NCBI GenBank assembly: GCA_965242705.1
Contig: OZ251486.1
Coordinates: forward strand, 333,945-397,944
Length of the DNA: 64,000 nucleotides
DNA from: Bryobacterales bacterium
GTDB lineage: Bacteria > Acidobacteriota > Terriglobia > Bryobacterales > UBA6623
Direction: 5' to 3'
Shown here: piece after piece, positions 5,545 through 64,000 of the stretch
Layout: each line of letters opens with the position of its first letter
How positions within the stretch are numbered: position 1 is the first letter of the stretch
Notes under the pieces: model-generated
Databases searched by the model: none
What the model was told of the DNA's origin: nothing
Seen by the model: the letters and a program-made list of their open reading frames with translations, nothing else
Translations under genes and position numbers: made by a program

Positions 5545-5723
5545 GGGAAGAGGCCGGGACGTGCGTGTTGTTCGGAAAAAACGCAGCCGGGTGGGGCACC
5601 TGGCCCCAGCGGACCGTGACTTCCACAGCCCTCCCAACCGCTGCAACCGATTTTCGCACGCAAAACGCCGAAAAGTCAACTTTTCCGTTTTTGCGGCGAT
5701 TTTTTCGGGAACAACCGGCGCTG

Positions 5724-35231: not shown

Positions 35232-37655
35232 CTATTCAACGGCAATCGTGGCGCCGGACTGGCTGATGCGGCCGGCTAGGGCGAGGCGCAACTCGGCGGC
35301 GTTTGACGGGGCGAGGTTGCGCGGGATTTCCACGATGACCAGGTTGACGCCGGCCATGTCCGGGGCCAGGCCGGAAAAGCGGACGTTCTCCGGGGACACC
35401 GCGTATGCGCCGATCCAGACCCGCGGGCGCGCTGCGGTATGCCGCAGCACGGCGTTCGAGCCGTTCGCCAAGCAGACGCCGTTCGGGGCGCATGAGTTCA
35501 TGCCGTCGGCGAGCGGCGGCTCCACCGCGCCCAGGCCCGTCGCGTAAATCTCCAGCACGTCGCCGGCGCGCGCCGGGCGGCTGCCCGCGCTGAAACCCAG
35601 CGGCGCGGCCAAGTCGGTCGTGCCCGCGAACGTCGCCAGCGCCTGTCCCTGGCCCGCGCTCTGTCCCTCGCCCGAGACCGTGAACACGCCCGGCGCGTAG
35701 GGGCCGACCCAGAAATGCCGCGGCCAACTGCTCTCGCCGCCGGATTCCACCACCACGCTCGCCAACGCCAAGCCGCCCGCCGCTACGGCTTCGCCGCCCA
35801 ACGCCCAGGGCAACTGCGCCTCGATGCGCTGCGGGCCTACGGCCATCAGCGGAACCGCCGCGCCGTCGATCAGCACCCGCGCCCCGCCCAGCATCGTCGG
35901 CAGCGGAAAGCCCGCCGCTTCCATGCGCTCACCCGAAGCGAAGTTCACGCCCTGCACGACCACCGCGGCGCCCGGCGCCAGCGGCAGCAACTGCGGCCCG
36001 AACAGCCCGCGCTCGCCGTAGGCGCTCATGCGCGCCGCACTGAATACGCCGCCGTTCTCCGACACCGCCGGCCCCGTCGGCGGGGGAACTTCCAGCACGA
36101 TGCGGATCGCGGCCGTGACGCGCCCGCCGGCGCGGATGTACAGCCGCCCGCGGTGGGTTCCCGGGCGCAGCCCCAGAGGGTTGACGCTTACGCGCAGGGT
36201 AGTCGTCTCGCCATCGGCCAAGCGGCCTCTCCATTGGGCAACGTTGCCGTCCGCCGACGAGACCTGTATCCAGCGGGCGCTGGGCAGCGCCTGGAAGTCC
36301 GTTGCGCCGCCTGCGGCGCGCAGCGTCAGCATCTGCGGCGCCGGCGCGGAGGAGTCGGCGTCCGGCGCCGGCGCGAACGACAACTCGGAAACGCCCACCG
36401 GCTCCACCGACGGCCCCGGATCCCTCGGTTTCGGCCCGGTCGGCGGCGGCGGAGGCGGCAGGAAGAAGGTCACCTTGCGGATGCGGTGGTTGCTCGAATC
36501 GGCGATGTACAGGTTGCCCAACCCGTCCACCGCCAAGCCGCGGGGGTGGTAGAGTCGGGCCGCTGTTGCCGCGCCGCCGTCCCCGCCGTATTCGCCCGGC
36601 GAAACTCCCGAAATCTGGGTAGGCCCCGATCCCGCAACCGTGGTAATCACCCCGGCCGCATCCACTTTGCGGACGCGGTTGTTCCACGTATCGGCGATGT
36701 ACAGGTTGCCCAATCCGTCCAGCACCACGCCGCGGGGGGCTCTCATTTCGGCCGAAACGGCCGGGCCGCCGTCCCCGCTGAAGCCGCGCGTCACCGTTCC
36801 CGCGACCGTGGTAATCACCCCGGCCGCATCCACCTTGCGGATGCGGCGGTTGCCCGAGTCGGCGATGTAAAAGTTGCCCAATCCGTCCAGCGCCACGCCG
36901 CCGCGGAGAAGGGACATTTGGGCGGACGTGGCTTGGCCGCCGTCGCCGGTGAAGCCGCTGCCCCCCCCCACTCCCGCTACGGTGGTAATCACTCCCGCCG
37001 CGTCCACCTTGCGGATGCGGTAGTTGAAGGTATCGGCGATGTAGATGTTGCCCGACCCGTCCGCGGCTACTCTGAAGGGGTTGTTGAGTTGGGCGGACGC
37101 GGCCGAGCCGCCGTCCCCGCTGTAGCCTTGCGTCGTTCCCGCGACGGTGGTAATCACCCCGGCCGCGTCCACCTTGCGGATGCGATGGTTGCTCGAATCG
37201 GCGATGTACAAGTTGCCCAATCCGTCCAGCGCCACGCCGCGGGGGGTGTTGAGTTGGGCTGATGTTGCTGCGGCGCCGTCGCCGCCGTAGCTGGCGACTC
37301 CCGTTCCCGCGACGGTGGTAATCATCCCGGCCGCGTCCACCTTGCGGACGCGTTCGTTGTCCGTCTCAGCGATGTACAGGTTGCCCGCCCCGTCCACCGC
37401 TACGCCGTGAGGGTTGTTGAGTTGGGCCGATGCGGCCGGGACGTTGTCGCCCAACGCCGATCCGCCTCCCGCGACCGTCTCGATGGTCGGGACAGCGACC
37501 GGGATGCCCTGCGCCGAGGCGGCCGCCGCCGCCAAGTGGAGGGCGAAGAGCGCAAGTCCCGCCTTGCCGGCGGCAAGCCGGGCGCGGAAAGAAGACGGGA
37601 AGGAAAGAGAAGGCTGCGTGGCGGAGCGTATGGCGATCATGCGTGTGGCGGTCAT
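35232..37655 (-). CDS. NHL-repeat protein with Solibacter-type (TIGR03437-like) C-terminal domain, paralog 2
   Basis: ORF 35232..37793. The ATG at 37655 gives MTATRMIAIRS..LALFALHLAAAAASAQG, a signal peptide. NHL units are present. The C-terminal half is nearly identical to 8619..11960. Confidence 0.85.
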   Translation of the reverse strand: MTATRMIAIRSATQPSLSFPSSFRARLAAGKAGLALFALHLAAAAASAQGIPVAVPTIETVAGGGSALGDNVPAASAQLNNPHGVAVDGAGNLYIAETDNERVRKVDAAGMITTVAGTGVASYGGDGAAATSAQLNTPRGVALDGLGNLYIADSSNHRIRKVDAAGVITTVAGTTQGYSGDGGSAASAQLNNPFRVAADGSGNIYIADTFNYRIRKVDAAGVITTVAGVGGGSGFTGDGGQATSAQMSLLRGGVALDGLGNFYIADSGNRRIRKVDAAGVITTVAGTVTRGFSGDGGPAVSAEMRAPRGVVLDGLGNLYIADTWNNRVRKVDAAGVITTVAGSGPTQISGVSPGEYGGDGGAATAARLYHPRGLAVDGLGNLYIADSSNHRIRKVTFFLPPPPPPTGPKPRDPGPSVEPVGVSELSFAPAPDADSSAPAPQMLTLRAAGGATDFQALPSARWIQVSSADGNVAQWRGRLADGETTTLRVSVNPLGLRPGTHRGRLYIRAGGRVTAAIRIVLEVPPPTGPAVSENGGVFSAARMSAYGERGLFGPQLLPLAPGAAVVVQGVNFASGERMEAAGFPLPTMLGGARVLIDGAAVPLMAVGPQRIEAQLPWALGGEAVAAGGLALASVVVESGGESSWPRHFWVGPYAPGVFTVSGEGQSAGQGQALATFAGTTDLAAPLGFSAGSRPARAGDVLEIYATGLGAVEPPLADGMNSCAPNGVCLANGSNAVLRHTAARPRVWIGAYAVSPENVRFSGLAPDMAGVNLVIVEIPRNLAPSNAAELRLALAGRISQSGATIAVE

Positions 37656-37790
37656 GTGGCTTTTCCAATTACTGACAAATCGAACTTTTTTATATTTTAC
37701 CTTACTTATTCTTTTTAATATGTACTTTACAATACATAAGAACTCTCGGCTGTTGCGTTTTTGCCGGCTGGGAGCAGGAAACGGGGAACC
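37656..37790 (-). promoter_or_regulatory. Strongly AT-rich 5' region immediately upstream of NHL paralog 2 (candidate promoter/UP region)
   Basis: About 130 bp of AT-rich sequence (ttatattttaccttacttattctttttaatatgtactttacaatacataag) in an otherwise GC-rich locus. Absent from the paralogous locus 1. Confidence 0.35.
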
Positions 37791-37994
37791 CACCAGCGGA
37801 ACGGCGCTTGCCGTCCGCGTTGCCGGCTACATTGCCGGCGGGGCGCCGGCGGCGCCGCCGGCGAGTGAAGAGCGCGAGCTCCGCGCCCGCGTGAAAGTCC
37901 CGCCTTGCCGGCTGCAAGCGGGGCGCGGAGAATCGAAAAAAGGAAGGAAGCGCCGCAGGCCGGGGAGCGCAGCGAGCGCGCTTCTCCTTATGAC

Positions 37995-47748: not shown

Positions 47749-47826
47749 ACAGCGCGCTTTGCGCGCGGCCGCGGGTCGGCGGGTCACGGGCCGCGGGTCG
47801 GGCGCGCGTTTTGCGCGGCGGCGCAG
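47749..47826. repeat. Composite REP element: hairpin, G-tract core, hairpin
   Basis: gcgcgctttgcgcgc | ggccgcgggtcggcgggtcacgggccgcgggtcggg | cgcgcgttttgcgcg. Near-identical architecture at 54866..54945 and 63893..63965. Confidence 0.75.
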
Positions 47827-49079
47827 ACGTCCTGATTTTGTTGCAGCCATTCCAGCAGGGCTTCGGCGGCCCAGCGGTGGCCGTCGGCGTTCCAGTGGAA
47901 ATCGTGGCGCCATTGCGCGTCGCTGAGCGCGGCGCCTTGACGCAGGATGTAGTCGGCCTGATCGATGACGGGGATATCGAGCGCCGCGGCCATGGCGCTC
48001 ATCCGCTCGAAAACGAGGGGACCGTGGAGCTTCGCGGTGTGCGCGGCCAGGATGACCAGCGCCGCTCCGTCGCGGTCGGCGCGCTGTTTGAATTGCTCGA
48101 GGGCGAAGGCCGTGTAGTCGAGGGCGTCCTCGAAGGCGGGCGGCAGATCGCTTGCGGCGAATACTTGGTGCATGTTCAGCAGCTCGATCGGCGGCCAGCG
48201 TTCGAGCAGCGCGGCATAGCGCGGGCGTTGGCGCAGCGTTTCCACCCAGAAAGGCAGCTTGCGGGGGTTCGGTGCGCAGTTAGCGGGAATATGTACGCAC
48301 ATTTGCGCATCCAGCCGGCGGGCGAACCAAGAGAACTTGGCCGCTCGCCACAGGATGCGCAGGTACCAGGGGTCCGGCGCGCCGGGCGGGGGGCGCGGCA
48401 AGGTGAATTGCGCGGCGTCAGGATGGGGAGGGCGCAGCTCGATTTTTCCGTCGGGGCGCCTTGCCGCATGGATCTCGGGTATGTAGTCCGGGTCGAAACC
48501 GCGACTCAATGAACGCAGCAGGGGATGGTTGTCGAGAAAGTCGTTGCGGACGAAAACCAGCACGACCAGTTTGGGGCGCAAGCGCCGGGCAAAGTCCCAG
48601 TAGGGCAGTTGATGGATTTGGCCGAGGCCGCTGTGGCCGAAGGCCGATGCCGTAACGTTCAGACGGGGCAGGGCGGCGGCGGCGAGCGCTTCGAGGCGGA
48701 CGTGGGATTTTTGGGCGATGGGCACGTCCTTTGCCTCGACGAAGGAGTCGCCGATGAAGGCGATACGGCAGCCCGCCGCGGCGCGTTCGGGTCTGGGCGG
48801 TTCGCGGTCGAGAAAGCCCAGGCTGTTGGCGCGCGAGACGGTCCAGAAGTCGAGCCGGTTCGTATGGCGGATCTCCGTGTGCGGTTTCCAGATATAGGTT
48901 CCTCGGTAAGGCATTACAGGGGGAAAAGATGTCGTCATGAACGGCTTGGTCCGCCGCAACCAAGTCTCGCCGGCGATCGCGATCATCGCCGCAGCGGCGG
49001 CAAGCAGTGCTGCATTCCAGGCGATCAGGCGCAGCGCGCGGCGGAGCCAATTGTGCGGGGGGAGGGGGGTATGGGTCAC
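47784..49079 (-). CDS. Membrane-anchored SGNH/GDSL-like hydrolase/acyltransferase, paralog P9
   Basis: The GTG at 49079 overlaps the P8 TGA (GTGA) and gives VTHTPLPPHNWLRRALRLIAWNAALL (TM). IAFIGDSFVEA; WRHDFHWNADGHRW. The C-terminus reads into the REP element. Confidence 0.8.
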   Translation of the reverse strand: MTHTPLPPHNWLRRALRLIAWNAALLAAAAAMIAIAGETWLRRTKPFMTTSFPPVMPYRGTYIWKPHTEIRHTNRLDFWTVSRANSLGFLDREPPRPERAAAGCRIAFIGDSFVEAKDVPIAQKSHVRLEALAAAALPRLNVTASAFGHSGLGQIHQLPYWDFARRLRPKLVVLVFVRNDFLDNHPLLRSLSRGFDPDYIPEIHAARRPDGKIELRPPHPDAAQFTLPRPPPGAPDPWYLRILWRAAKFSWFARRLDAQMCVHIPANCAPNPRKLPFWVETLRQRPRYAALLERWPPIELLNMHQVFAASDLPPAFEDALDYTAFALEQFKQRADRDGAALVILAAHTAKLHGPLVFERMSAMAAALDIPVIDQADYILRQGAALSDAQWRHDFHWNADGHRWAAEALLEWLQQNQDVCAAAQNARPTRGP

Positions 49080-50332
49080 GGGTCGGGCGCGCAGACTTGC
49101 GGGTTTTGTTGCAGCCATTCTAAGAGGGCTTCGGCGGCCCAGCGGTGGCCGTCGGCGTTCCAGTGGAAATCGTGGCGCCATTGCGCATCGCTGAGCGCGG
49201 CGCCTTGGCGCAGGATGTAGTCGGTCTGATCGATGACGGGGATATCGAGCGCCGCAGCCATGGCGCTCATCCGCTCGAAAACGAGGGGGCCGTGGAGCTT
49301 CGCTGTGTGCGTGGCCAGGATGACCAGAGCCGCTCCGTCGCGGTCGGCGCGCTGCTTGAATTGCTCGAGGGCGAAGGCCGTGTAGTCGAGGGCGTCCTCG
49401 AAGGCGGGCGGCAGATCGCTTGCGGCGAATACTTGGTGCATGTTCAGCAGCTTGATCGGCGGCCAGCGTTCGAGCAGCGCGGCATAGCGCGGGCGTTGGC
49501 GCAGCGTTTCCACCCAGAAAGGCAGCTTGCGGGGGTTCGGTGCGCAGTTAGCGGGAATATGCAAGCACATTTGCGCATCCAGCCAGCGGGCGAACCAGGA
49601 GAACTTGACCGCTCGCCACAGGATATGCACGTACCAGGGGTCCGGCGCGCCGGGCGGGGGGCGCGGCAAGGTGAATTGCGCGGCGTCAGGATGGGGAGGG
49701 CGCAGCTCGATTTTTCCGTCGGGGCGCCTTGCCGCATGGATCTCGGGTATGTAGTCCGGGTCGAAATCGCGATCCAATGAATGCAGCAGGGGAGAGTTGT
49801 CGAGAAAGTCGTTGTCAACGAAGACCTGCACGACCAGTTTGGGGCGCAAGCGCCGGGCAAAGTCGTAGTAGGGCAGTTGCTGGATTTGGCCGTTGCCGCT
49901 GTAGCCGAAAGCCGAGGTCGTAACGTTCAGACGGGGCAGGGCGGCGGCGGCGAGCGCTTCGAGGCGGACGTGGGATTTTTGGGCGATGGGCACGTCCTTT
50001 GCCTCGACGAAGGAGTCGCCGATGAAGGCGATATGGCAGCCCGCCGCGGCGCGTTCGGGGCTGGGCGGTTCGCGGTCGAGAAAGCCCAGGCTGTTGGCGC
50101 GCGAAACGGCCCAGTAGTCGAGCCGGTTCGTATAGCGGATCTCCGCGTGGGGTTTCCGGAGCCAGGTTCCTTGGTAGCTGACTCCAGGGGGAAAAGAGAG
50201 GGCCATGAACGGCTTGGTCCGCCGCAACCAGGTTTCGCCGGCAACCGCGATCAGCGCCGCAGCGGCGGCAAGCAGTGCTGCATTCCAGGCGATCAGGCGC
50301 AGCGCGCGGCGGAGTCGATGGGGGGGGATCAT
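49076..50332 (-). CDS. Membrane-anchored SGNH/GDSL-like hydrolase/acyltransferase, paralog P8
   Basis: The ATG at 50332 overlaps the stop of the 742-aa gene (ATGA). MIPPHRLRRALRLIAWNAALL; IAFIGDSFVEA; DFHWNADGHRW. Confidence 0.85.
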   Translation of the reverse strand: MIPPHRLRRALRLIAWNAALLAAAAALIAVAGETWLRRTKPFMALSFPPGVSYQGTWLRKPHAEIRYTNRLDYWAVSRANSLGFLDREPPSPERAAAGCHIAFIGDSFVEAKDVPIAQKSHVRLEALAAAALPRLNVTTSAFGYSGNGQIQQLPYYDFARRLRPKLVVQVFVDNDFLDNSPLLHSLDRDFDPDYIPEIHAARRPDGKIELRPPHPDAAQFTLPRPPPGAPDPWYVHILWRAVKFSWFARWLDAQMCLHIPANCAPNPRKLPFWVETLRQRPRYAALLERWPPIKLLNMHQVFAASDLPPAFEDALDYTAFALEQFKQRADRDGAALVILATHTAKLHGPLVFERMSAMAAALDIPVIDQTDYILRQGAALSDAQWRHDFHWNADGHRWAAEALLEWLQQNPQVCAPDP

Positions 50333-54865: not shown

Positions 54866-54945
54866 GCATGGCGGGACGCGCTTTGCGCGGCGGCCGCGGG
54901 TCGGCGGGTCACGGGTCGAGCGGGCGCGCGCTTTGCGCGTCTGCG
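54866..54945. repeat. Composite REP element: hairpin, G-tract core, hairpin
   Basis: gacgcgctttgcgcggc | ggccgcgggtcggcgggtcacgggtcgagcggg | cgcgcgctttgcgcg. Forms the 3' end of paralog P7. Confidence 0.75.
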
Positions 54946-56237
54946 CAGACGTCCTGATTTTGTTGCAGCCATTCGAGCAGGGCTTCGGCGGCCCAGCGGT
55001 GGCCGTCGGCGTTCCAGTGGAAATCGTGGCGCCATTGCGCATCGCGGAGCGCGGCGCCTTGGCGCAGGATGTAGTCGGTCTGATCGATGACGGGGATATC
55101 GAGCGCCGCAGCCATGTCGCTCATTCGATCGAAAGCGAGGGGGCCATGGAGCTTCATGAGGTGCGAAGCCAGGATGACCAGCGCTGCGCCGTCGCGGTCG
55201 GCGCGCCGTTTGAATTGCTCGAGGGCGAAGGCCATGTAGTCGAGGGCGTCCTCGAAGGCGGGCGGCAGATCGCTTGAGGCGAATACTTGGTGCATGTTCA
55301 ACTGCTTGATCGGCGGCCAGTCCGCAAGCAGCTTGATCGGCGGCCAGCGTTCGAGCAGCGCGGCATAGCGCGGGCGTTGGCGCAGCGTTTCCACCCAGAA
55401 AGACAGCTTGCGGGGGTTCCCTACGCAGTTAGCGGGAATATGTACGCACATTTGCGCATCCAACCAGTGTGCGAACCAGGAGAACTTGACCGCTCGCCAC
55501 AGGATATGCACGTACCAGGGGTCCGGCGCGCCGCCGGGCGGGGGGCGCGGCAAGGTGAATTGCGCGGCGTCAGGATGGGGAGGGCGCAGCTCGATTTTTC
55601 CGTCGGGGCGCCTTGCCGCATGGATCTCGGGTATGTAGTCCGGGTCGAAACCGCGATTCAATGAACGCAGCAGGGGATGGTTGTCGAGAAAGTCGTTGTG
55701 GACGAAGACCAGCACGACCAGTTTGGGGCGCAGGCGCCGGGCAAAGTCATAGTAGGGCAGTTGCTGGATTTGGCCGATGCGCATATGACCGAAGGCCGAT
55801 GTCGCAACGTTCAGACGGGGCAGGGCGGCGGCGGCGAGCGCTTCGAGGCGGACGTGGGATTTTTGGGCGATGGGCACTTCCATCGCCTCGACGAAGGAGT
55901 CGCCGATGAAGGCGATACGGCAGCCTGCCGCGGCGCGTTCGGAGCTGGGCGGTTCGCGGTCGAGAAAGCCCAGGCTGTTGACGCGCGAGACGGTCCAGAA
56001 GTCGAGCCGGTTCGTATAGCGGATCTCCGCGTGGGGTTTCCAGAGCCCGGTTCCTTGGTAGCTGACTACAGGGGGAAAAGAGGTCGTCATGAACGGCTTG
56101 GTCCGCCGCAACCAGGTTTCGCCGGCAACCGCGATCAGCGCCGCAGCGGCGGCAAGCAGTGCTGCATTCCAGGCGATCAGGCGCAGCGCGCGGCGGATTC
56201 GATTGCGGGGGGGGGGGGGGTATGGGTCACGAGTCAC
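54909..56237 (-). CDS. Membrane-anchored SGNH/GDSL-like hydrolase/acyltransferase, paralog P7
   Basis: The GTG at 56237 gives MTRDPYPPPPRNRIRRALRLIAWN via the C14 tract. IAFIGDSFVEA; DFHWNADGHRW. Internal duplication WPPIKLLADWPPIKQL. Confidence 0.85.
   Translation of the reverse strand: MTRDPYPPPPRNRIRRALRLIAWNAALLAAAAALIAVAGETWLRRTKPFMTTSFPPVVSYQGTGLWKPHAEIRYTNRLDFWTVSRVNSLGFLDREPPSSERAAAGCRIAFIGDSFVEAMEVPIAQKSHVRLEALAAAALPRLNVATSAFGHMRIGQIQQLPYYDFARRLRPKLVVLVFVHNDFLDNHPLLRSLNRGFDPDYIPEIHAARRPDGKIELRPPHPDAAQFTLPRPPPGGAPDPWYVHILWRAVKFSWFAHWLDAQMCVHIPANCVGNPRKLSFWVETLRQRPRYAALLERWPPIKLLADWPPIKQLNMHQVFASSDLPPAFEDALDYMAFALEQFKRRADRDGAALVILASHLMKLHGPLAFDRMSDMAAALDIPVIDQTDYILRQGAALRDAQWRHDFHWNADGHRWAAEALLEWLQQNQDVCADAQSARPLDP
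56207..56220. repeat. G14 homopolymer (C14 on the coding strand) in codons 6-11 of P7
   Basis: Counted directly: 56207-56220 are all G. Confidence 0.95.
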
Positions 56238-56247
56238 GAGTTGAGGG

Positions 56248-57510
56248 TCACGGGTCGGGCGCGCAGACTTGCGGATTTTGCTGCAGCCATTCTAACAGGG
56301 CTTCGGCGGCCCAGCGGTGGCCGTCGGCGTTCCAGTGGCCGTCGCGGGGCAATTGCGCATCGCTGAGCGCGGCGCCTTGGCGCAGGATGTAGTCGGCCTG
56401 ATCGATGACGGGGATATCGAGCGCCGCAGCCATGGCGTTGAGTCGGTCGAAGATGCGGTTTCCATGGAGCTTCGCGGTGTGCGAGGCCAGGATGACCAGA
56501 GCCGCTCCGTCGCGGTCGGCGCGCTGCTTGAATTGCTCGAGGGCGAAGACCGTGTAGTCGAGGGCGTCCTCGAAGGCGGGCGGCAGATCGCGTGCGGCGA
56601 ATACTTGGTGCATGTCGTACCGCCCGACCGGCGGCCAGCGTTCGAGCAGCGCGGCATAGCGCGGGCGTTGGCGCAGCGTTTCCACCCAGAGAGGAAACTT
56701 GAGAGGGTTCTCTGTACAGTGAACGGGAACAAGTTTGCATATTGGATTACTCAGCCAGCGGGCGAACCAGGAGAACTTGGCCGCTCGCCACAGGATGCGC
56801 AGGTACAGGGGGTCCGGCGGGCCGGGCGGGGGGCTCGGCAAGGTGAATTGCGCGGCGTCAGGATGGGGAGGGCGCAGCTCGATCTTTCCGTCGGGGCGCC
56901 TTGCCGCATGGATCTCGGGTATGTAGTCCGGGTCGAAACCGTGAATCAATGAACGCAGCAGGGGGTGGTTGTCGAGAAAGTCGTTGTGGACGAAAACCTG
57001 CACGACCAGTTTGGGGCGCAGGCGACGGGCAAAGTCGTCGTAGTAGGGCAGTTGATGGATTTGGCCGATGCCGCTGCGGCTGAAGGCCGATGCCGCAACG
57101 TTCAGACGGGGCAGGGCGGCGGCGGCGAGCGCTTCGAGGCGGACGTGGGATTTTTGGGCGATAGGCACTTCCTTTGCCTCGACGAAGGAGTCGCCGATGA
57201 AGGCGATACGGCAGCCTGCCGCGGCGCGTTCGGGGCTGGGCGGTTCGCGGTCGAGAAAACCCAGGCTGTTGACGCGCGAGACAGCCCAGAAGTTGAGCCG
57301 GTTCGTATAACGGATCTCCGTGTGGGGTTTCCAGAGATAGGTCCCTCGGTAACGAATTACAGGGGGAAAAAAGCTGGCCATGAACGGCTTGGTCCGCCGG
57401 AGCCAAGCCTCGCCGGCGATCGCGATCAGCGCCGCAGCGGCGGCAAGCAGTGCTGCATTCCAGGCGATCAGGCGCAGCGCGCGACGGAGTCGATTGTGTG
57501 TGTGGGGCAT
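56248..57510 (-). CDS. Membrane-anchored SGNH/GDSL-like hydrolase/acyltransferase, paralog P6
   Basis: ATG at 57510, 3 nt after the P5 stop. MPHTHNRLRRALRLIAWN, encoded through a (CA)5 repeat. IAFIGDSFVEA; RDGHWNADGHRW. Confidence 0.85.
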   Translation of the reverse strand: MPHTHNRLRRALRLIAWNAALLAAAAALIAIAGEAWLRRTKPFMASFFPPVIRYRGTYLWKPHTEIRYTNRLNFWAVSRVNSLGFLDREPPSPERAAAGCRIAFIGDSFVEAKEVPIAQKSHVRLEALAAAALPRLNVAASAFSRSGIGQIHQLPYYDDFARRLRPKLVVQVFVHNDFLDNHPLLRSLIHGFDPDYIPEIHAARRPDGKIELRPPHPDAAQFTLPSPPPGPPDPLYLRILWRAAKFSWFARWLSNPICKLVPVHCTENPLKFPLWVETLRQRPRYAALLERWPPVGRYDMHQVFAARDLPPAFEDALDYTVFALEQFKQRADRDGAALVILASHTAKLHGNRIFDRLNAMAAALDIPVIDQADYILRQGAALSDAQLPRDGHWNADGHRWAAEALLEWLQQNPQVCAPDP

Positions 57511-57513
57511 GGG

Positions 57514-58788
57514 TCACGGGTCGGGCGCGCAGACTTGCGGGTTTTGCTGCAGCCATTCTAAGAGGGCTTCGGCGGCCCAGCGGTGGCCGTCGGCGTTCCA
57601 GTGGAAATCGTGGCGCCATTGCGCATCGCTGAGCGCGGCGCCTTGGCGCAGGATGTAGTCGGTCTGATCGATGACGGGAATGCCCAGCGCCGCGGCCATG
57701 GCGCTCATCCGCTCGAAAACGAGGGGACCGCGGAGCTTCGCGGTGTGCGAGGCCAGGATGACCAGAGCCGCTCCGTCGCGGTCGGCGCGCTGCTTGAACT
57801 GTTCGAGGGCGAAGGCCGTGTAGTCGAGGGCGTCCTCGAAAACGGGCAGCGGATCGTTTGCGGTGAATACTTGTTCCACGAATACTTGGTGCATGTTTTG
57901 CTGCGTGACCGGCGGCCAGTCTGCAAGCAGCGCGGCATAGCGCGGGCGTTGGCGCAGCGTTTCCACCCACAAAGGCAATCTGAGGGGGTTCCCTGCGCAG
58001 TTAGCGGGAATATGCAAGCACATTTGCGCATCCAGCCAGCGTGCGAACCAGGAGAACTTGACCGCTCGCCACAGGATATGTACGTACCAGGGGTCCGGCG
58101 GGCCGGGCGGGGGGCGCGGCAGGGTGAATTGCGCGGCGTCAGGATGGGGAGGGCGCAGCTCGATTTTTCCGTCGGGGCGCCTTGCCGCATGGATCTCGGG
58201 TATGTAGTCCGGGTCGAAACCGCGCTCCAATGAATGCAGCAGGGGATGGTTGTCGAGAAAGTCGTTGTGGACGAAAACCTGCACGACCAGTTTGGGGCGC
58301 AAGCGCCGGGCAAAGTCGTCGTAGTAGGGCAGTTGATGGATTTGGCCGATGCCGTTGTAGCCGAAGGCCGACGTCGTAACGTTCAGACGGGGCAGGGCGG
58401 CGGCGGCGAGCGCTTCGAGGCGGACGTGGGATTTTTGGGCGATGGGCACGTCCTTTGCCTCGACGAAGGAGTCGCCGATGAAGGCGATATGGCAGCCCGC
58501 CGCGGCGCGTTCGGGGCTGGGCGGTTCGCGGTCGAGAAAGCCCAGGCTGTTGGCGCGCGAGACGGCCCAGAAGTCGAGCCGGTTCGTATAGCGGATCTCC
58601 GTGTGGGGTTTCCGGAGATAAGCCCCTCTGTAACGAATTTCTTCAGGGGGAAAAGAGTTCGTCATGAACGGCTTGGTCCGCCGCAACCAGGTTTCGCCGG
58701 CAACCGCGATCAGCGCCGCAGCGGCGGCAAGCAGTGCTGCATTCCAGGCGATCAGGCGCAGCGCGCGGCGGATTCGATTGGGGGGCAT
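57514..58788 (-). CDS. Membrane-anchored SGNH/GDSL-like hydrolase/acyltransferase, paralog P5
   Basis: ATG at 58788, 3 nt after the P4 stop. MPPNRIRRALRLIAWN (C6 tract). IAFIGDSFVEA; DFHWNADGHRW. Confidence 0.85.
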   Translation of the reverse strand: MPPNRIRRALRLIAWNAALLAAAAALIAVAGETWLRRTKPFMTNSFPPEEIRYRGAYLRKPHTEIRYTNRLDFWAVSRANSLGFLDREPPSPERAAAGCHIAFIGDSFVEAKDVPIAQKSHVRLEALAAAALPRLNVTTSAFGYNGIGQIHQLPYYDDFARRLRPKLVVQVFVHNDFLDNHPLLHSLERGFDPDYIPEIHAARRPDGKIELRPPHPDAAQFTLPRPPPGPPDPWYVHILWRAVKFSWFARWLDAQMCLHIPANCAGNPLRLPLWVETLRQRPRYAALLADWPPVTQQNMHQVFVEQVFTANDPLPVFEDALDYTAFALEQFKQRADRDGAALVILASHTAKLRGPLVFERMSAMAAALGIPVIDQTDYILRQGAALSDAQWRHDFHWNADGHRWAAEALLEWLQQNPQVCAPDP

Positions 58789-58791
58789 GGA

Positions 58792-60084
58792 TCACGGGTC
58801 GGGCGCGCAGACTTGCGGATTTTGTTGCAGCCATTCTAGCAGGGCTTCGGCGGCCCAGCGGTGGCCGTCGGCGTTCCAGTGGAAATCGTGGCGCCAGTGC
58901 GCATCGCTGAGCGCGGCGCCTTGGCGCAGGATGTAGTCGGCCTGATCGATGACGGGAATGCCCAGCGCCGCAGCCATGGCGCTCATCCGCTCGAAAACGA
59001 GGGAGCCTTGGATCTTCGTGAGGTGCGAGGCCAGGATGACCAGCGCGCTGCCGCCGCGGTCGGCGCGCTGCTTGAACTGCTCGAGGGCGAAGGCCGTATA
59101 GTCGAGGGCGTCCTCGAAAACGGGCGGCAGGCTGCTTTCCGAGAACATCCAGTAAAGGTCTTCCCGCGTGGTCGGCCGCCAGTCTGCGAGCAGCGCGGCA
59201 TAGCGCGGACGTTGGCGCAGCGTTTCCACCCAGAAAGGCAGCTTGCGGGGGTTCGTTGCGCAATTAGCGGGAATATGTACGCACATTTGCGCATCCAGCC
59301 GGCGGGCGAACCAGGAGAACTTGACCGCTCGCCACAGGATATGTACGTACCAGGGGTCCGGCGGGCCGGGCGGGGGGCGCGGCAAGGTGAATTGCGCGGC
59401 GTCAGGATGGGGAGGGCGCAGCTCGATTTTTCCGTCGGGGCGCCTTGCCGCATGGATCTCGGGTACGTAGTCCGGGTCGAAACCACCCAATGAACGCAGC
59501 AGGGGATGGTTGTCGAGAAAGTCGTTGGGGACGAAGACCAGCACGACCAGTTTGGGGCGCAGGCGCCGGGCAAAGTCGTCGTAGTAGGGCAGTTGCTGGA
59601 TTTGGCCGTGGCTTCTGTGGCCGAAGGCCGATGTCGTAACATTCAGACGGGGTAGCGCGGCGGCGGCGAGCGCTTCGAGGCGGACGTGGGATTTTCGGGC
59701 GATAGGCACTTCCATCGCCTCGACGAAGGAGTCGCCGATGAAGGCGATATGGCAGCCCGCCGCGGCGCGTTCGGGGCTGTGCGGTTCGCGGTCGAGAAAG
59801 CCCAGGCTGTTGACGCGCGAGACGGTCCAGAAGTCGAGCCGGTTCGTATAGCGGATCTCCGCGTGGGGTTTCCGGAGATAAGTCCCTCGGTAACGAATTA
59901 CAGGGGGAAAAAAGCTGGCCATGAACGGCTTGGTCCGCCGGAGCCAAGTTTCGCCGGCAACCGCGATCAGCGCCGCAGCGGCGGCAAGCAGTGCTGCATT
60001 CCAAGCGATCAGGCGCAGCGCGCGGCGGATTCGATTGTGCGGGGGGGGGGGGGGGGGGGCACGAGTCGAGAGTTGCGGGGTCAC
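58792..60084 (-). CDS. Membrane-anchored SGNH/GDSL-like hydrolase/acyltransferase, paralog P4
   Basis: The GTG at 60084 overlaps the P3 TGA and gives MTPQLSTRAPPPPPPHNRIRRAL via the C19 tract. IAFIGDSFVEA; DFHWNADGHRW. Confidence 0.85.
   Translation of the reverse strand: MTPQLSTRAPPPPPPHNRIRRALRLIAWNAALLAAAAALIAVAGETWLRRTKPFMASFFPPVIRYRGTYLRKPHAEIRYTNRLDFWTVSRVNSLGFLDREPHSPERAAAGCHIAFIGDSFVEAMEVPIARKSHVRLEALAAAALPRLNVTTSAFGHRSHGQIQQLPYYDDFARRLRPKLVVLVFVPNDFLDNHPLLRSLGGFDPDYVPEIHAARRPDGKIELRPPHPDAAQFTLPRPPPGPPDPWYVHILWRAVKFSWFARRLDAQMCVHIPANCATNPRKLPFWVETLRQRPRYAALLADWRPTTREDLYWMFSESSLPPVFEDALDYTAFALEQFKQRADRGGSALVILASHLTKIQGSLVFERMSAMAAALGIPVIDQADYILRQGAALSDAHWRHDFHWNADGHRWAAEALLEWLQQNPQVCAPDP
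60041..60059. repeat. G19 homopolymer (C19 on the coding strand) in codons 9-15 of P4
   Basis: Counted directly: 60041-60059 are all G. Confidence 0.95.
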
Positions 60085-61376
60085 GGGTCAGGCGCGCAGA
60101 CTTGCGGGTTTTGTTGCAGCCATTCTAACAGGGCTTCGGCGGCCCAGCGGTGGCCGTCGGCGTTCCAGTGGCCGTCGTGGCGCCATTGCGCATCGCTGAG
60201 CGCGGCGCCTTGGCGCAGGATGTAGTCGGCCTGATCGATGACGGGGATATCGAGCGCCGCAGCCATGGCGATCATCCGCTCGAAAACGAGGGAGCCATGG
60301 AGCTTCGCGGTGTGCGCGGCCAGGATGACCAGAGCCGCTCCGTCGCGGTCGGCGCGCTGCTTGAACTGTTCAAGGGCGAAGGCCGTGTAGTCGAGGGCGT
60401 CTTCGAAAACGGGCGGCGGATCGTTTGCGGCGATTACTTGTTCCACGAATGCTTGTTCCATGTTTTGCAGCTTGATCGGCGGCCAGCGTTCGAGCAGCGC
60501 GGCATAGCGCGGGCGCTGGCGCAGCGTTTCCACCCAGAAAGGCAACTTCAGGGGGTTCTCTGTGCAGTGAACGGGAACAAGTTTGCATATTTGATCACTC
60601 AGCCGGCGGGCGAACCGGGAGAACTTGGCCGCTCGCCACAGGATGCGCAGGTACCAGGGGTCCGGCGGGCCGGGCGGGGGGCGCGGCAAGGTGAATTGCG
60701 CGGCGTCAGGATGGGGAGGGCGCAGCTCGATTTTTCCGTCGGGGCGCCTTGCCGCATGGATCTCGGGTATGTAGTCCGGGTCGAAACCGCGACTTAATGA
60801 ACGCAGCAGGGGATGGTTGCCGAGAAAGTCGTTGGGGACGAAGACCAGCACGACCAATTTGGGGCGCCGGCGCCGGGCAAAGTCGTCGTAGTAGGCCAAT
60901 TGATGGATTTGGCCGATGTCACTGAAGCCGAAGGCCGATGTCGTAACGTTCAGACGGGGCAGGGCGGCGGCGGCGAGCGCTTCGAGGCGGACGTGGGATT
61001 TTTGGGCGATGGGCACTTGCAGCGCCTCGACGAAGGAGTCGCCGATGAAGGCGATACGGCAGCCTGCCGCGGCGCGTTCGGGGGCGGGCGGTTCGCGGTC
61101 GAGAAAGCCCAGGCTGTTGACGCGCGAGACGGTCCAGAAGTCGAGCTGGTTCGTATAGTGGATCTCCGCGTGGGGTTTCCAGAGATAGGTCCCTCGGTAA
61201 CGAATTACAGGGGGAAAAGAGGTCAGCAAGAACGGCTTGGTCCGCCGCCGCAACCAGGTTTCGCCGGCGATCGCGATCAGCGCCGCAGCGGCGGCAAGCA
61301 GTGCTGCATTCCAGGCGATCAGGCGCAGCGCGCGGCGGATTCGATTGTGCGGGGGGGGGGGGGGGGTATGGGTCAC
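60081..61376 (-). CDS. Membrane-anchored SGNH/GDSL-like hydrolase/acyltransferase, paralog P3
   Basis: The track ORF 60081..61829 runs on upstream only because that frame lacks stops. The GTG at 61376 overlaps the P2 TGA and gives VTHTPPPPPHNRIRRAL via the C16 tract. The ATG seen in other junctions is ATA here. Confidence 0.8.
   Translation of the reverse strand: MTHTPPPPPHNRIRRALRLIAWNAALLAAAAALIAIAGETWLRRRTKPFLLTSFPPVIRYRGTYLWKPHAEIHYTNQLDFWTVSRVNSLGFLDREPPAPERAAAGCRIAFIGDSFVEALQVPIAQKSHVRLEALAAAALPRLNVTTSAFGFSDIGQIHQLAYYDDFARRRRPKLVVLVFVPNDFLGNHPLLRSLSRGFDPDYIPEIHAARRPDGKIELRPPHPDAAQFTLPRPPPGPPDPWYLRILWRAAKFSRFARRLSDQICKLVPVHCTENPLKLPFWVETLRQRPRYAALLERWPPIKLQNMEQAFVEQVIAANDPPPVFEDALDYTAFALEQFKQRADRDGAALVILAAHTAKLHGSLVFERMIAMAAALDIPVIDQADYILRQGAALSDAQWRHDGHWNADGHRWAAEALLEWLQQNPQVCAPDP
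61351..61366. repeat. G16 homopolymer (C16 on the coding strand) in codons 4-9 of P3
   Basis: Counted directly: 61351-61366 are all G. Confidence 0.95.
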
Positions 61377-62518
61377 GAGTCGGGCGCGCAGACTTGCGGA
61401 TTTTGCTGCAGCCATTCTAGCAGGGCTTCGGCGGCCCAGCGGTGGCCGTCGGCGTTCCAGTGGCCGTCGTGGAGCCATTGCGCATCGCTGAGCGCGGCGC
61501 CTTGACGCAGGATGTAGTCGGCCTGATCGATGACAGGGATATCGAGCGCCGCGGCCATGGCGCGCATCCGCTCGAAAACGAGGGGACCATGGATCTTCGC
61601 GGTGTGCGAGGCCAGGATGACCAGCGCTGCGCCGTCGCGGTCGGCGCGCTGCTTGAACTGCTCGAGAGCGAAGGACGTATAGTCGAGGGCGTCCTCGAAA
61701 ATGGGCGGCGGATCGTTTGCGGCGAATACTTGTTCCACGAATACTCGTTCCATGTTTTCCTGCGTGACCGGCGGCCAGCGTTCGAGCAGCGCGGCATAGC
61801 GCGGGCGTTGGCGCAGCGTTTCCACCCACAAAGGCAATCTGAGGGGGTTCCCTGCGCAGTTAGCGGGAATATGTACGCACATTTGCGCATCCAACCAGTG
61901 TGCGAACCAGGAGAACTTGACCGCTCGCCACAGGATATGCACGTACCAGGGGTCCGGCGGGCCGGGCGGGGGGCGCGACAGGGTGAATTGCGCGGCGTCA
62001 GGATGGGGAGGGCGCAGCTCGATTTTTCCGTCGGGGCGCCTTGCCGCATGGATCTCGGGTATGTAGTCCGGGTCGACCCCGCGCTCCAATGAACGCAGCA
62101 GGGGATGGTTGTCGAGAAAGTCGTTGTGGACGAAAACCAGCACGACCAGTTTGGGGCGCAGGCGCCGGGCAAAGTCGTAGTAGGGCAGTTGCTGGATTTG
62201 GCCGATGCCGTTGTAGCCGAAGGCCGACGTCGTAACGTTCAGACGGGGCAGGGCGGCGGCGGCGAGCGCTTCGAGGCGGACGTGGGATTTTTGGGCGATA
62301 GGCACTTCCTTTGCCTCGACGAAGGAGTCGCCGATGAAGGCGATACGGCAGCCCGCCGCGGCGCGTTCGGGGCTGGGCGGTTCGCGGTCGAGAAAGCCCA
62401 GGCTGTTGACGCGCGAGACGCCCCAGAAGTCGAGCCGGTTCGTATAGCGGAGCTCCGTGTGGGGTTTCCGTAGCCAAGTTCCTTGGTAGCTGACTACAGG
62501 GGGAAAAGAGTTCGTCAT
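61373..62518 (-). CDS. SGNH/GDSL-like paralog P2; the TM-anchor-coding 5' segment (to 62635) is in frame but is disconnected from its ATG (62657) by the C18 tract
   Basis: The family frame (..YKRLRRALRLIAWNATLLAAAAALIAVAGETWLRRTKPFMTNSF..) is open from the tract. ATG + C18 + G puts the ATG in the +1 frame, and the first in-frame start is ATG 62518. Possibly phase-OFF, or a homopolymer sequencing error. Confidence 0.7.
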   Translation of the reverse strand: MTNSFPPVVSYQGTWLRKPHTELRYTNRLDFWGVSRVNSLGFLDREPPSPERAAAGCRIAFIGDSFVEAKEVPIAQKSHVRLEALAAAALPRLNVTTSAFGYNGIGQIQQLPYYDFARRLRPKLVVLVFVHNDFLDNHPLLRSLERGVDPDYIPEIHAARRPDGKIELRPPHPDAAQFTLSRPPPGPPDPWYVHILWRAVKFSWFAHWLDAQMCVHIPANCAGNPLRLPLWVETLRQRPRYAALLERWPPVTQENMERVFVEQVFAANDPPPIFEDALDYTSFALEQFKQRADRDGAALVILASHTAKIHGPLVFERMRAMAAALDIPVIDQADYILRQGAALSDAQWLHDGHWNADGHRWAAEALLEWLQQNPQVCAPDS

Positions 62519-62636
62519 GAACGGCTTGGTCCGCCGGAGCCAGGTTTCGCCGGCAACCGCGATCAGCGCCGCAGCGGCGGCAAGCAGTGTTGCATTCCAG
62601 GCGATCAGGCGCAGCGCGCGGCGGAGTCGCTTGTAC

Positions 62637-62654
62637 GGGGGGGGGGGGGGGGGG
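62637..62654. repeat. G18 homopolymer (C18 on the coding strand) immediately after the P2 ATG
   Basis: Counted directly: 62637-62654 are all G. cat (ATG) at 62655-62657. Confidence 0.95.
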
Positions 62655-62660
62655 CATGGA

Positions 62661-63929
62661 TCACGGGTCGGGCGCGCAGACTTGCGGGTTTTGTTGCAGC
62701 CATTCTAACAGGGCTTCGGCGGCCCAGCGGTGGCCGTCGGCGTTCCAGTGGACGTCGTGGAGCCATTGCGCATCGCTGAGCGCGGCGCCTTGACGCAGGA
62801 TGTAGTCGGCCTGATCGATGACGGGAATGCCCAGCGCCGCGGCCATGGCGCTCATCCGCTCGAAAACGAGGGGGCCATGGATCTTCGCGGTGTGCGAGGC
62901 CAGGATGACCAGCGCTGCGCCGTCGCGGTCGGCGCGCTGCTTGAACTGCTCGAGAGCGAAGGCCGTATAGTCGAGGGCGTCCTCGAAAACGGGCGGCAGG
63001 CTGCTTTCCGAGAACGTCCGGTAAAGGCCTTCCCGCGTGGTCGGCCGCCAGCCTGCGAGCAGCGCGGCATAGTCGGGCCGGCGGCGCAGCATATCCGCAT
63101 GCATGAGCAGCGCGGGGTCATGGCCGGCGCGGAACAGCACGTCTTTCTTGGCGTCCAACCAGTTGGCGAACCAGGAAAGCTTGACGGCCTGTTTGAGGCG
63201 GACGACCCAGGCCGGCCGGCGGTTCGGCTTGGCCGGCCGCGGCAGCAAGACCTCTTCCGCGCGGTCGGGGTGAGGCGGACGCCACTCGATCCGCCCGTCG
63301 GGAAGCCTTGCCGCGCCGGGTTCCGGCGGAGGGTACTGCGGGTCCCGCCCCTCGAGCAAGGCGCGCAGGACGGGCGAATTGTCGGCGAAGTCGTTGGAGA
63401 CAAAAACCAGCACGAGCAGCTTGGGGCGCAGATGCCGGGCGTATTCGTCGTAGAACGGCATTTGCTGTATCTGGCCGGTGTTGGCGCGGGCGAAGGCCGA
63501 GGCGGCGAGCTCGAGATGGGGCAGCGCCTCGGCGGCGAGCGTTTCGAGCCGCACATGGAATTTCCGAGAGATGGGAGACAACAGCTTCGCCTCGACATAA
63601 GAATCGCCGATGACGGCGGCGCGGCAGCCTGCCGCGGCGCGTTCGGGGTTGGGCGGTTCGCGGTCAACGAAGCCCAGGCTGTTGGTGCGCGAGACGGCCC
63701 AGTAGTCGAGCCGGTTGGTGAAGCGTATCTCGGCGTTGGGTTCCCAGAGCAGCCCCACCTTGGGGACGAACTCCTTCCCGGGACTTTGCGGCGTCATGAA
63801 CGGCTTGGCAAGCCGAAACCAAGTCTCGCCGGCAACCGCGATCAGCGCCGCGCCGGCGAAGAGCATCAGCGCATTCCAGGCGATGAGGCGGGCCGCGCTT
63901 TGCACGGCGGTCGCGGGTCGGCGAGTCAC
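62661..63929 (-). CDS. Membrane-anchored SGNH/GDSL-like hydrolase/acyltransferase, divergent/chimeric paralog P1
   Basis: The GTG at 63929 overlaps the P0 TGA (alternative GTG at 63905; track ATG at 63998). AAVIGDSYVEA; HDVHWNADGHRW. The N-terminal two thirds are divergent. The last about 130 codons are near-identical to P4/P2. Confidence 0.8.
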   Translation of the reverse strand: MTRRPATAVQSAARLIAWNALMLFAGAALIAVAGETWFRLAKPFMTPQSPGKEFVPKVGLLWEPNAEIRFTNRLDYWAVSRTNSLGFVDREPPNPERAAAGCRAAVIGDSYVEAKLLSPISRKFHVRLETLAAEALPHLELAASAFARANTGQIQQMPFYDEYARHLRPKLLVLVFVSNDFADNSPVLRALLEGRDPQYPPPEPGAARLPDGRIEWRPPHPDRAEEVLLPRPAKPNRRPAWVVRLKQAVKLSWFANWLDAKKDVLFRAGHDPALLMHADMLRRRPDYAALLAGWRPTTREGLYRTFSESSLPPVFEDALDYTAFALEQFKQRADRDGAALVILASHTAKIHGPLVFERMSAMAAALGIPVIDQADYILRQGAALSDAQWLHDVHWNADGHRWAAEALLEWLQQNPQVCAPDP

Positions 63930-63965
63930 GGGGCGCGGGTCACGGGACGGCGCGCGCTTTGCGCG
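63893..63965. repeat. Composite REP element: hairpin, G-tract core, hairpin
   Basis: gccgcgctttgcacggc | ggtcgcgggtcggcgagtcacggggcgcgggtcacggg | cgcgcgctttgcgcg. Spans the P0/P1 junction. Confidence 0.7.
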
Positions 63966-64000
63966 TCTGCGCAGACCTCCCGATTTTCTTGCAGCCATTC
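63926..64000 (-). CDS. C-terminal fragment of a further SGNH-like paralog (P0); the rest lies beyond the window
   Basis: The minus frame from 64000 reads EWLQENREVCADAQSARRPVTRAP*, matching the ..LEWLQQNQDVCADAQSARP.. ends of P7/P9. TGA at 63928-63926. Confidence 0.6.
   Translation of the reverse strand, partial: EWLQENREVCADAQSARRPVTRAP

Follow-up and report, generated by a model that had tools for sequence, protein, structure and literature searches.

Long poly-C tracts at the 5′ ends of tandem SGNH hydrolase genes as candidate phase-variation switches in uncultured bacteria

Why should successive paralogous genes begin with unbroken runs of cytosine up to 19 nt long? This question is raised by a stretch of 64,000 nt from a Bryobacterales bacterium (contig OZ251486.1, positions 333,945 to 397,944; the whole stretch is hereafter the window), in which genes for SGNH hydrolases with an N-terminal membrane anchor stand head-to-tail on the minus strand, numbered here P1 to P9. 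An earlier note made from the letters of the sequence had proposed that the runs are contingency loci, switched by slipped-strand mispairing. This reading is supported by the length polymorphism of the tracts, by their recurrence across assemblies and by an excess of frameshifts in the genes that carry them, and a probability of roughly 70% is given to the tracts being hypermutable simple sequence repeats (SSRs), poly-C with poly-G on the template strand, that act as translational phase-variation switches of individual paralogs.

The runs read as G on the plus strand and as C on the coding (minus) strand of the paralogs. Their coordinates, both of the long and of the short tracts, had been quoted in the earlier note and were all confirmed in the sequence:

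62637-62654, minus strand: C18 tract of P2, directly 3′ of the ATG at 62657-62655
61351-61366, minus strand: C16 tract of P3, giving five prolines from the GTG at 61376; public gene call P0004 starts with MTHTPPPPPHNRIRR
60041-60059, minus strand: C19 tract of P4, giving six prolines from the GTG at 60084; gene call P0003 starts with MTPQLSTRAPPPPPPHNRIRR
56207-56220, minus strand: C14 tract of P7, giving four prolines, with the GTG at 56237; gene call P0006 starts with MTRDPYPPPPRNRIRR
58780-58785, minus strand: short C6 tract of P5, read in frame from the ATG at 58788
57495-57504, minus strand: (CA)5 repeat at the tract position of P6, (TG)5 on the plus strand, in frame with the ATG at 57510
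50320-50327, minus strand: C8 tract of P8, read in frame from the ATG at 50332
49057-49069, minus strand: interrupted C6-T-C6 tract of P9 (G6-A-G6 on the plus strand), in frame with the GTG at 49079

Against the four G/C runs of at least 14 nt observed in the 64 kb, a first-order Markov model of the window predicts about 0.0017, and all four lie at the 5′ ends of minus-strand tandem paralogs, within codons 1 to 15. The run-length spectrum of the window (66.6% G+C) is steep, with 17 runs of G6, one of G7 and one of G8; below the four tracts, G/C runs reach no further than a C9 at 36961 and the G8, which is the P8 junction itself. Given this spectrum and the Markov expectation, the tracts are taken as genuine sequence features whose placement is non-random. 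Moreover, CCC accounts for only 39.5% of the proline codons in 18 open reading frames (ORFs) of the window (52% are CCG), so that pure C runs are not explained by coding need; with this usage, five to six CCC codons in succession would be expected in less than 1% of proline runs. The codon positions first proposed for the tracts hold provided that the GTG starts at 61376, 60084 and 56237 are used, and the four to six prolines predicted from in-frame tracts were recovered in the three copies listed. As for the flanking sequence, which had been described as conserved, the conservation is real but approximate only: the 3′ flank occurs as GCACAATCGA, GTACAAGCGA or GCAATCGA, and the 5′ flank as CCCATA, TCCATG or CTCGTG. 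The C9 run (36961-36969; G9 on the coding strand) lies inside an 853-aa NHL-repeat ORF (35232-37793, minus strand).

The genes that begin with these tracts follow one another with a period of ~1.29 kb. P1 to P7 occupy positions 54909-63929, and P8 and P9 form a second block at 47784-50332, downstream of three unrelated genes. The nine copies are the following:

62661-63929, minus strand: P1, divergent paralog without a tract, ~65% identical to the others
61373-62657, minus strand: P2, frameshifted at its tract and otherwise intact, with an open frame from 62705 to the stop at 61373
60081-61376, minus strand: P3, its GTG start overlapping the TGA of P2 (GTGA)
58792-60084, minus strand: P4, its GTG start overlapping the TGA of P3
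57514-58788, minus strand: P5, 424 aa, the reference copy; scores 34.0 bits with PF13472, for a cut-off of 32.9
56248-57510, minus strand: P6, SGNH paralog
54909-56237, minus strand: P7, SGNH paralog, last of the main array, with a different C-terminal tail
49076-50332, minus strand: P8, SGNH paralog of the second block
47784-49079, minus strand: P9, SGNH paralog of the second block

The probable GTG start of P1 at 63929 overlaps the TGA of a further paralog upstream, whose 3′ end (63926-64000) reaches the window edge. No internal stops were found in any of the nine copies, and the GDS and HDxHW motifs are kept in 9 of 9. P2 to P9 are 81-91% identical (91% for P2 and P5), their differences being clustered in a few patches and forming mosaic patterns typical of gene conversion. 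The dN/dS values among them range from 0.45 to 0.71, and that of P2 resembles those of its in-frame siblings and is not raised. P7 contains a short tandem protein duplication, RWPPIKLLADWPPIKQ (~55000-55040; alignment columns ~293-306), that is absent from the other paralogs.

Whether a tract can act as a switch depends on the reading frames that meet at it. Adjoining genes of the array overlap by 4 nt, and the order at the junction is GAC CCG TGA of the upstream gene, an overlapping GTG (GTGA), ATG or ATA, the C tract and (CAC) AAT CGA ATC CGC CGC, the codons after the tract encoding (H)NRIRRALRL followed by a membrane helix. The junction ATG follows the GTG at a distance of 7 nt and is read in a different frame. 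The state of each copy was established by tracing its coding frame upstream for ATG, GTG or TTG. The ATG frame is open in P5 (C6), P6 ((CA)5) and P8 (C8), the stop-overlapping GTG is in frame in P3 (C16), P4 (C19) and P9 (C6TC6), and P7 (C14) is in frame solely with the second of three junction GTGs (56237); the public gene calls for P3, P4 and P7 use GTG starts. For P2 (C18), no ATG, GTG or TTG occurs upstream in frame, and this copy is therefore scored as OFF. Its ATG frame terminates after 219 codons, and its public gene call, P0122, is cut short to 381 aa and starts at an internal ATG at 62518, 3′ of the membrane-helix codons. A tract of C17 or C20 would bring P2 into the ATG frame, and one of C16 or C19 into the GTG frame.

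With two start frames per junction, two of the three tract-length classes can give a product, and it is the length of the tract that decides which frame leads into the enzyme, that of the GTG, that of the ATG or neither of them. By this frame count, P2 is OFF in the window, P3 and P4 are predicted to be ON via the GTG and P7 via its alternative GTG, and P5, P6 and P8, with their short tracts, are fixed ON. Neither the out-of-frame state of P2 nor the two start codons in different frames at each junction had been recognised in the earlier note. In P3, P7 and P9, the junction ATG is replaced by ATA (61369-61367, 56223-56221 and 49072-49070, respectively); this replacement was seen only in copies using the upstream GTG frame, including one in the related PANK22 assembly described below (L001, 10008-10010), and a Nitrospirales copy (L103, ~11520) also shows it. 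Furthermore, the junctions of P7 (56221-56250) and P4 (60060-60084) contain extra stop-region repeats, CTCAACTCGTGACTCGTGACCCATA and CCCCGCAACTCTCGACTCGTG, respectively, which add GTGs in other frames, and the P4-type insert is also present in a PANK22 scaffold. A scan for promoter-like sites found none, using a sigma-70 consensus that may not apply to this organism, and the same scan gave 6 terminator-like sites, compared with 16 expected, none of them at a junction. From the GTGA overlap and the lack of such sites at the junctions, we infer that the array is co-transcribed and translationally coupled; through this coupling, an OFF copy could weaken its downstream neighbour.

Does tract length vary between relatives? 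The same array, with the same flanking genes, was found on scaffolds 54 and 1058 of a metagenome assembly (ENA ERZ23495932, PANK22-1), with 93% identity to the window over the P1-P2 region. At the P2 junction, the window has ATG and C18 while the PANK22 scaffold has ATA and C13, which places the PANK22 orthologue in the GTG frame, and therefore ON. The PANK22 orthologue of P8 carries C7 followed by A (a substitution, of the same length as C8), the last copy of the array has an interrupted proline-rich remnant, CCCCCTCAGCCTCAGCCCCCCTCCCC, with no pure tract, and two more divergent paralogs are found upstream. At a P4-type junction, scaffold 54 terminates in an obviously artefactual C52 (L001, 11297-11348), and scaffold 1058 begins within the membrane-helix codons just past the junction (L002, 1-120), from which it appears that the short-read assembly broke at or just downstream of junction tracts. 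Breaks at such positions suggest possible length heterogeneity. The second block comprises two paralogs in the window (47784-50332) and one in PANK22 (L002, 7100-8353), so copy number differs between relatives.

A similar picture was obtained in other lineages. A Nitrospirales array (OZ244060.1) holds five copies with C18, C13, C17, C8 and C7AC6, and a Nitrospirales HiFi-style contig from another sample holds four, with C15, no tract, C16 and C10TC3. This pair shares its flanks and differs in tract length, and in one copy an ATG has changed to ATA. Among the encoded proteins, two assemblies contain the identical peptide MTNAKTRGVKPPNS ahead of RRIRR, separated from it by Pro4 in one and by Pro9 in the other. 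Tract length is thus polymorphic between related strains with conserved flanks in the P2 orthologues, in the Nitrospirales pair and in these peptides. The earlier note had stated that orthologous arrays without tracts, or long tracts produced by assembly, would count against switching. In the orthologous arrays the tracts are kept at other lengths, and many independent assemblies carry tracts at one and the same position of the protein.

The extent of the tract-bearing family was assessed by a profile scan with one genome per species, which gave 73 loci with proteins 47-59% identical to P5. The genomes are labelled as Bryobacterales, Terriglobia (Acidobacteriota), Vicinamibacterales, Binatia, Nitrospirales, Longimicrobiales/Gemmatimonadota, Chloroflexota/Dehalococcoidia, Latescibacterota, Alpha- and Gammaproteobacteria/Pseudomonadales and Candidatus Entotheonella. 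Runs were counted in the window and 75 loci (~1.05 Mb), the 5′ zone of a family gene being set at −60 to +120 nt, or ~2.7% of the sequence. A total of 38 G/C runs of at least 9 nt were found, 28 of which lay in the 5′ zone of a family gene, where ~1 was expected, and 26 of these 28 were poly-C on the coding strand. The family tracts sit 5-26 nt upstream of an RRxLRL motif, the longest being C21, C24 (twice) and C31. Of the remaining runs, two fall within family genes and another is the C52 at the end of its contig. In Binatia family genes, C10 and C11 runs occur mid-gene, in a proline-rich linker before an SWFxxWL helix (L005, 8017-8026 and 9568-9578). Four other long tracts were located near family genes in the same MAGs: a C16 and a C13 at the 5′ ends of unrelated genes, for a different membrane protein (L018, 3896-3911) and a lipoprotein-like ORF (L019, 12035-12047), respectively, and a G22 (L009, 70-91) and a G14 (L054, 8541-8554) that are apparently intergenic; the genomes with these four tracts may hold many contingency loci. 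In 25 relatives at 29-40% identity, obtained by a profile scan of metagenome contigs, no 5′ run of at least 7 nt was present, and the exact junction-flank pattern had no match in the metagenome contig collection.

The effect of the tracts on the reading frame was then counted in 134 non-redundant family genes with complete 5′ regions, anchored on tblastn matches and inspected gene by gene. An in-frame start upstream of the membrane motif was present in 109 of the 111 genes with a C run shorter than 9 nt and in 14 of the 23 with a run of at least 9 nt; in other words, it was missing in 9 of 23 tract genes compared with 2 of 111 others (Fisher p = 1.2e−6). By length, 4 of 10 genes with C9-C12 and 5 of 13 with C13 or longer were OFF. 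The inspection confirmed the OFF calls and revealed one more copy out of frame with an ATG conserved among its paralogs. All inspected tract copies, whether ON or OFF, are open for at least 400 codons.

Taken together, the in-silico marks of a slipped-strand contingency locus are present: the length of the tract, its position in the 5′ coding region, the dependence of the frame on it, intact genes in both ON and OFF alleles, and tract lengths that are polymorphic between conserved flanks. In the mechanism proposed, replication slippage would alter the tract by one nucleotide more or less at high frequency, and several patterns of expression would come to coexist in the population, the enzymes involved differing from one another at a few variable patches of their surface. 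The product made from the internal ATG of an OFF copy would be neither anchored nor exported. The payoff would be heterogeneity in the modification of the cell envelope or of host glycans within a host-associated, probably marine-sponge, community.

Several observations weigh against this mechanism and are set out here, followed by the rival explanations. No Shine-Dalgarno-like sequence is visible at the junctions, and we infer the GTG starts. No conserved partner or neighbour gene was found in five neighbourhoods. In addition, the 14 of 23 tract genes that are in frame exceed the one third expected for a single start codon, an excess that could be explained by the two start frames or by selection.

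The alternative that survives best, itself unlikely, is that the tracts are a mutational by-product, in which C runs expand within a cytoplasmic tail that is disordered and rich in proline, the family being GC-rich, quick to duplicate and horizontally mobile, and the frameshifted copies are young pseudogenes of a birth-and-death process. The multi-copy, mosaic nature of the family and the dN/dS values given above agree with it, as do the degenerate tracts (C6TC6 in P9 and the PANK22 remnant), the decay of the start codon from ATG to ATA and the Binatia copies with mid-gene tracts. However, ORFs of at least 400 codons are kept in 9 of 9 OFF copies, and P2 retains both catalytic motifs with no dN/dS excess. 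Moreover, the position of the tract is conserved across phyla while distant relatives are without it, and long pure tracts are kept in both members of each strain pair.

Less probable still is that the real tracts are of fixed length and in frame, that their differences are homopolymer errors of sequencing or assembly, and that the selected feature is an N-terminal polyproline tail. All the evidence comes from assemblies, and long homopolymers, error-prone in general, are the weakest point of the long-read ones, which are probably HiFi: the contig names s418.ptg000496c and ctg28396_49x_c resemble hifiasm-meta and metaMDBG output. The C52 end in PANK22 is an obvious artefact, 61% of tract genes are in frame, and some OFF calls could be errors of one nucleotide more or less. 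On the other hand, the differences often go far beyond a single nucleotide (18 vs. 13; 13 vs. 18 vs. 8; Pro4 vs. Pro9), reaching 5-15 nt, and 4 of 10 genes are out of frame at C9-C12 as well, lengths that pose less difficulty for sequencing. Furthermore, a selected polyproline would take CCG as often as CCC, and the number of prolines is not conserved among the paralogs, in which it varies from 2 to 6.

An equally small chance is given to recoding on the C run of the mRNA, by slippage of RNA polymerase or by a +1 shift of tRNA-Pro on CCC-C, with which all alleles would be partly expressed, and tract length, elongation factor P (EF-P) and the m1G37 modification would tune the output as a rheostat instead of an on/off switch. 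Ribosomes stall at three or more consecutive proline codons when EF-P is absent. Slippage of tRNA-Pro by +1 in the context CCC-C has been documented (PMC4519876, PMC7577736), and the tracts on the coding strand are almost always poly-C and not poly-G. Against this, length polymorphism is seen directly at the DNA level and is sufficient by itself, and the strand bias was possibly inherited from one ancestor of the family. Recoding could coexist with switching at the DNA level, and the control through EF-P suggested in the earlier note belongs here. Finally, an origin of the tracts as scars of tandem duplication was rejected, as single-copy family genes (L007, L057 and L068) carry them too.

What, then, would a phase-variable tract switch? 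Each copy encodes ~420 aa of an SGNH/GDSL hydrolase. With PF13472 (GDSL_2), P5 (34.0 bits) and P9 (36.4 bits) scored above the cut-off and P1 (22.7 bits) below it. The AlphaFold (AF2) model of P5, with a mean predicted local distance difference test (pLDDT) of 90 and a predicted TM-score (pTM) of 0.87, shows an N-terminal helix at residues 3-38 and then an SGNH core with insertions. Searched with Foldseek, it matched many SGNH esterases with a probability of 1.0 and target-normalised TM-scores of 0.6-0.7, along with acetyl-xylan esterases and, at rank 16, the membrane-anchored DltD. The residues G105-D106-S107, N175-D176 and H396 are invariant in 16 diverse homologues, and the catalytic blocks of the SGNH/GDSL superfamily (the GDS serine, the asparagine of block III and the Asp/His of block V) are present in all nine paralogs of the window. 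In block V the sequence is HDxHW, with the D-x-H spacing of AlgX in place of D-x-x-H. The N-terminus, R-I-R-R-A-L-R-L followed by ~22 hydrophobic residues, is probably a signal anchor with the modelled catalytic domain outside the cytoplasm, and the protein probably belongs to the general class of membrane-anchored SGNH esterases or acyl-transfer enzymes. An O-acetyltransferase of the AlgX/AlgJ type was rejected, given that Pfam ALGX scores (21.0, 15.4 and 15.6 bits) fall below the cut-off of 26.5, with a match confined to the D-x-H-W region, and that an MBOAT partner is lacking: no gene of the AlgI/PatA/DltB type was found among the called genes with Pfam matches in five neighbourhoods or among the scanned ORFs of the window. 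NCBIfam and PADLOC gave no match for the family, and a sequence-profile search of the PDB gave a single match, at chance level.

The surroundings of the array contain sulfatases, an MFS transporter, NHL-repeat proteins and a DUF1552 protein, and with the array among sulfatases, the transporter and NHL-repeat proteins, a role on host glycans is as open as one on the bacterium's own envelope. The three genes between the two blocks are an MGMT-like gene, a gene with a weak match to S55 peptidases and a gene for a Reg_prop protein. Elsewhere in the window, the Rfam DUF3800-VI RNA motif (RF02915) was matched at 5584-5640 on the minus strand, with 55.3 bits for a gathering score of 35.

How did such a family come to occupy so many lineages? 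Family genes are 83-93% identical at the nucleotide level, over ~1.3 kb each, between metagenome-assembled genomes (MAGs) labelled as different phyla or classes (L014, L017, L030, L041, L029 and L022). In particular, Pseudomonadales OY282430 and Ca. Entotheonella OY282375 share 92% over 1332 nt, and Gammaproteobacteria OY282433 and Entotheonella share 93.5% nucleotide identity. Identities of 83-93% across labels point to recent transfer between phyla, unless the labels are loose. The mix of taxa, with Ca. Entotheonella among them, is that of marine sponges of high microbial abundance. The tag PANK22 may refer to the sponge microbiome study of Pankey et al. 2022, with which it fits. It is tentatively proposed, at somewhat less than even odds, that the SGNH gene, together with the poly-C at its 5′ end, is a portable contingency module that may have spread horizontally in recent times among at least eight phyla or classes of co-resident symbionts, probably of marine sponges, as a community-wide switch family whose switches are interdependent within arrays. 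If so, a symbiont community would share one stochastic switch family for the modification of envelopes or host glycans, and stop-start coupling in the arrays would make the switches interdependent, not independent as first suggested.

The slipped-strand mechanism itself is classical textbook material, and its operation here is a prediction. New are the gene family, its arrangement as a coupled tandem array, and the way in which the family recurs with its tracts in many phyla of uncultured bacteria; no report linking sponge or other environmental symbionts with SSR phase variation, or with this SGNH family, was found in the paper library searched. To our knowledge, phase variation by slippage is known almost only from cultured animal pathogens and commensals. 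Its signature now appears in uncultured GC-rich bacteria, in an unexpected cross-phylum pattern. If read data confirm it, these symbiont communities would commonly rely on bet-hedging through contingency loci, the membrane-anchored SGNH family would be marked as a likely factor in interactions with hosts or phages, and homopolymer frameshifts and truncated gene calls in long-read MAGs could be biology and not error.

With which known systems, finally, can the locus be compared? The comparison with glycosyltransferases and O-acetyltransferases drawn in the earlier note is an analogy only, the protein here being an SGNH hydrolase. DltD and the AlgX/AlgJ/PatB group resemble it in having an N-terminal membrane helix followed by an SGNH-like domain; as differences, the GDS serine block is N-terminal here, as in classical esterases, and no MBOAT partner was found in the neighbourhoods covered. 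As to the mechanism, contingency loci are classical in Campylobacter, Neisseria, Helicobacter and Haemophilus (PMC8437040, PMC5084427, PMC11868660), and an N-terminal enrichment of mononucleotide repeats has been proposed as their genomic signature (PMC3315296); SSR biology is treated in PMC12721329. The lgt, pgl/pgtA and pglI-type genes of Neisseria (PMC5084427, PMC2193922) share with the present tracts a homopolymer in the 5′ coding region, length polymorphism between strains, and downstream ORFs left intact in both ON and OFF alleles, whereas here the protein family is another, the paralogs form a tandem array, and the distribution covers many phyla instead of one genus. The poly-G/C genes for capsule, lipooligosaccharide (LOS) and flagellar glycosylation of Campylobacter jejuni (PMC8437040, PMC8355987, PMC3068675) are alike in their 5′ intragenic G/C homopolymers in neighbouring, partly paralogous genes. 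The likeness extends to ON/OFF frameshifts giving combinatorial phasotypes and to a host-associated lifestyle, with the difference that switching is here predicted from sequence. The present tracts are also longer, at 14-19 nt here and as much as 24-31 nt in relatives, and they belong to a GC-rich genome and to uncultured bacteria, in a head-to-tail array with GTGA stop-start overlaps whose product is an SGNH hydrolase. In lic1 of H. influenzae, ATG start codons in different frames lie upstream of a tetranucleotide repeat. The junctions described here are similar in that two starts in two frames precede the repeat and two of three length classes are predicted to be productive and one not, and they differ in that a mononucleotide tract takes the place of the tetranucleotide repeat and that a stop-coupled GTG and a nearby ATG serve as starts, the latter lost to ATA in several copies.

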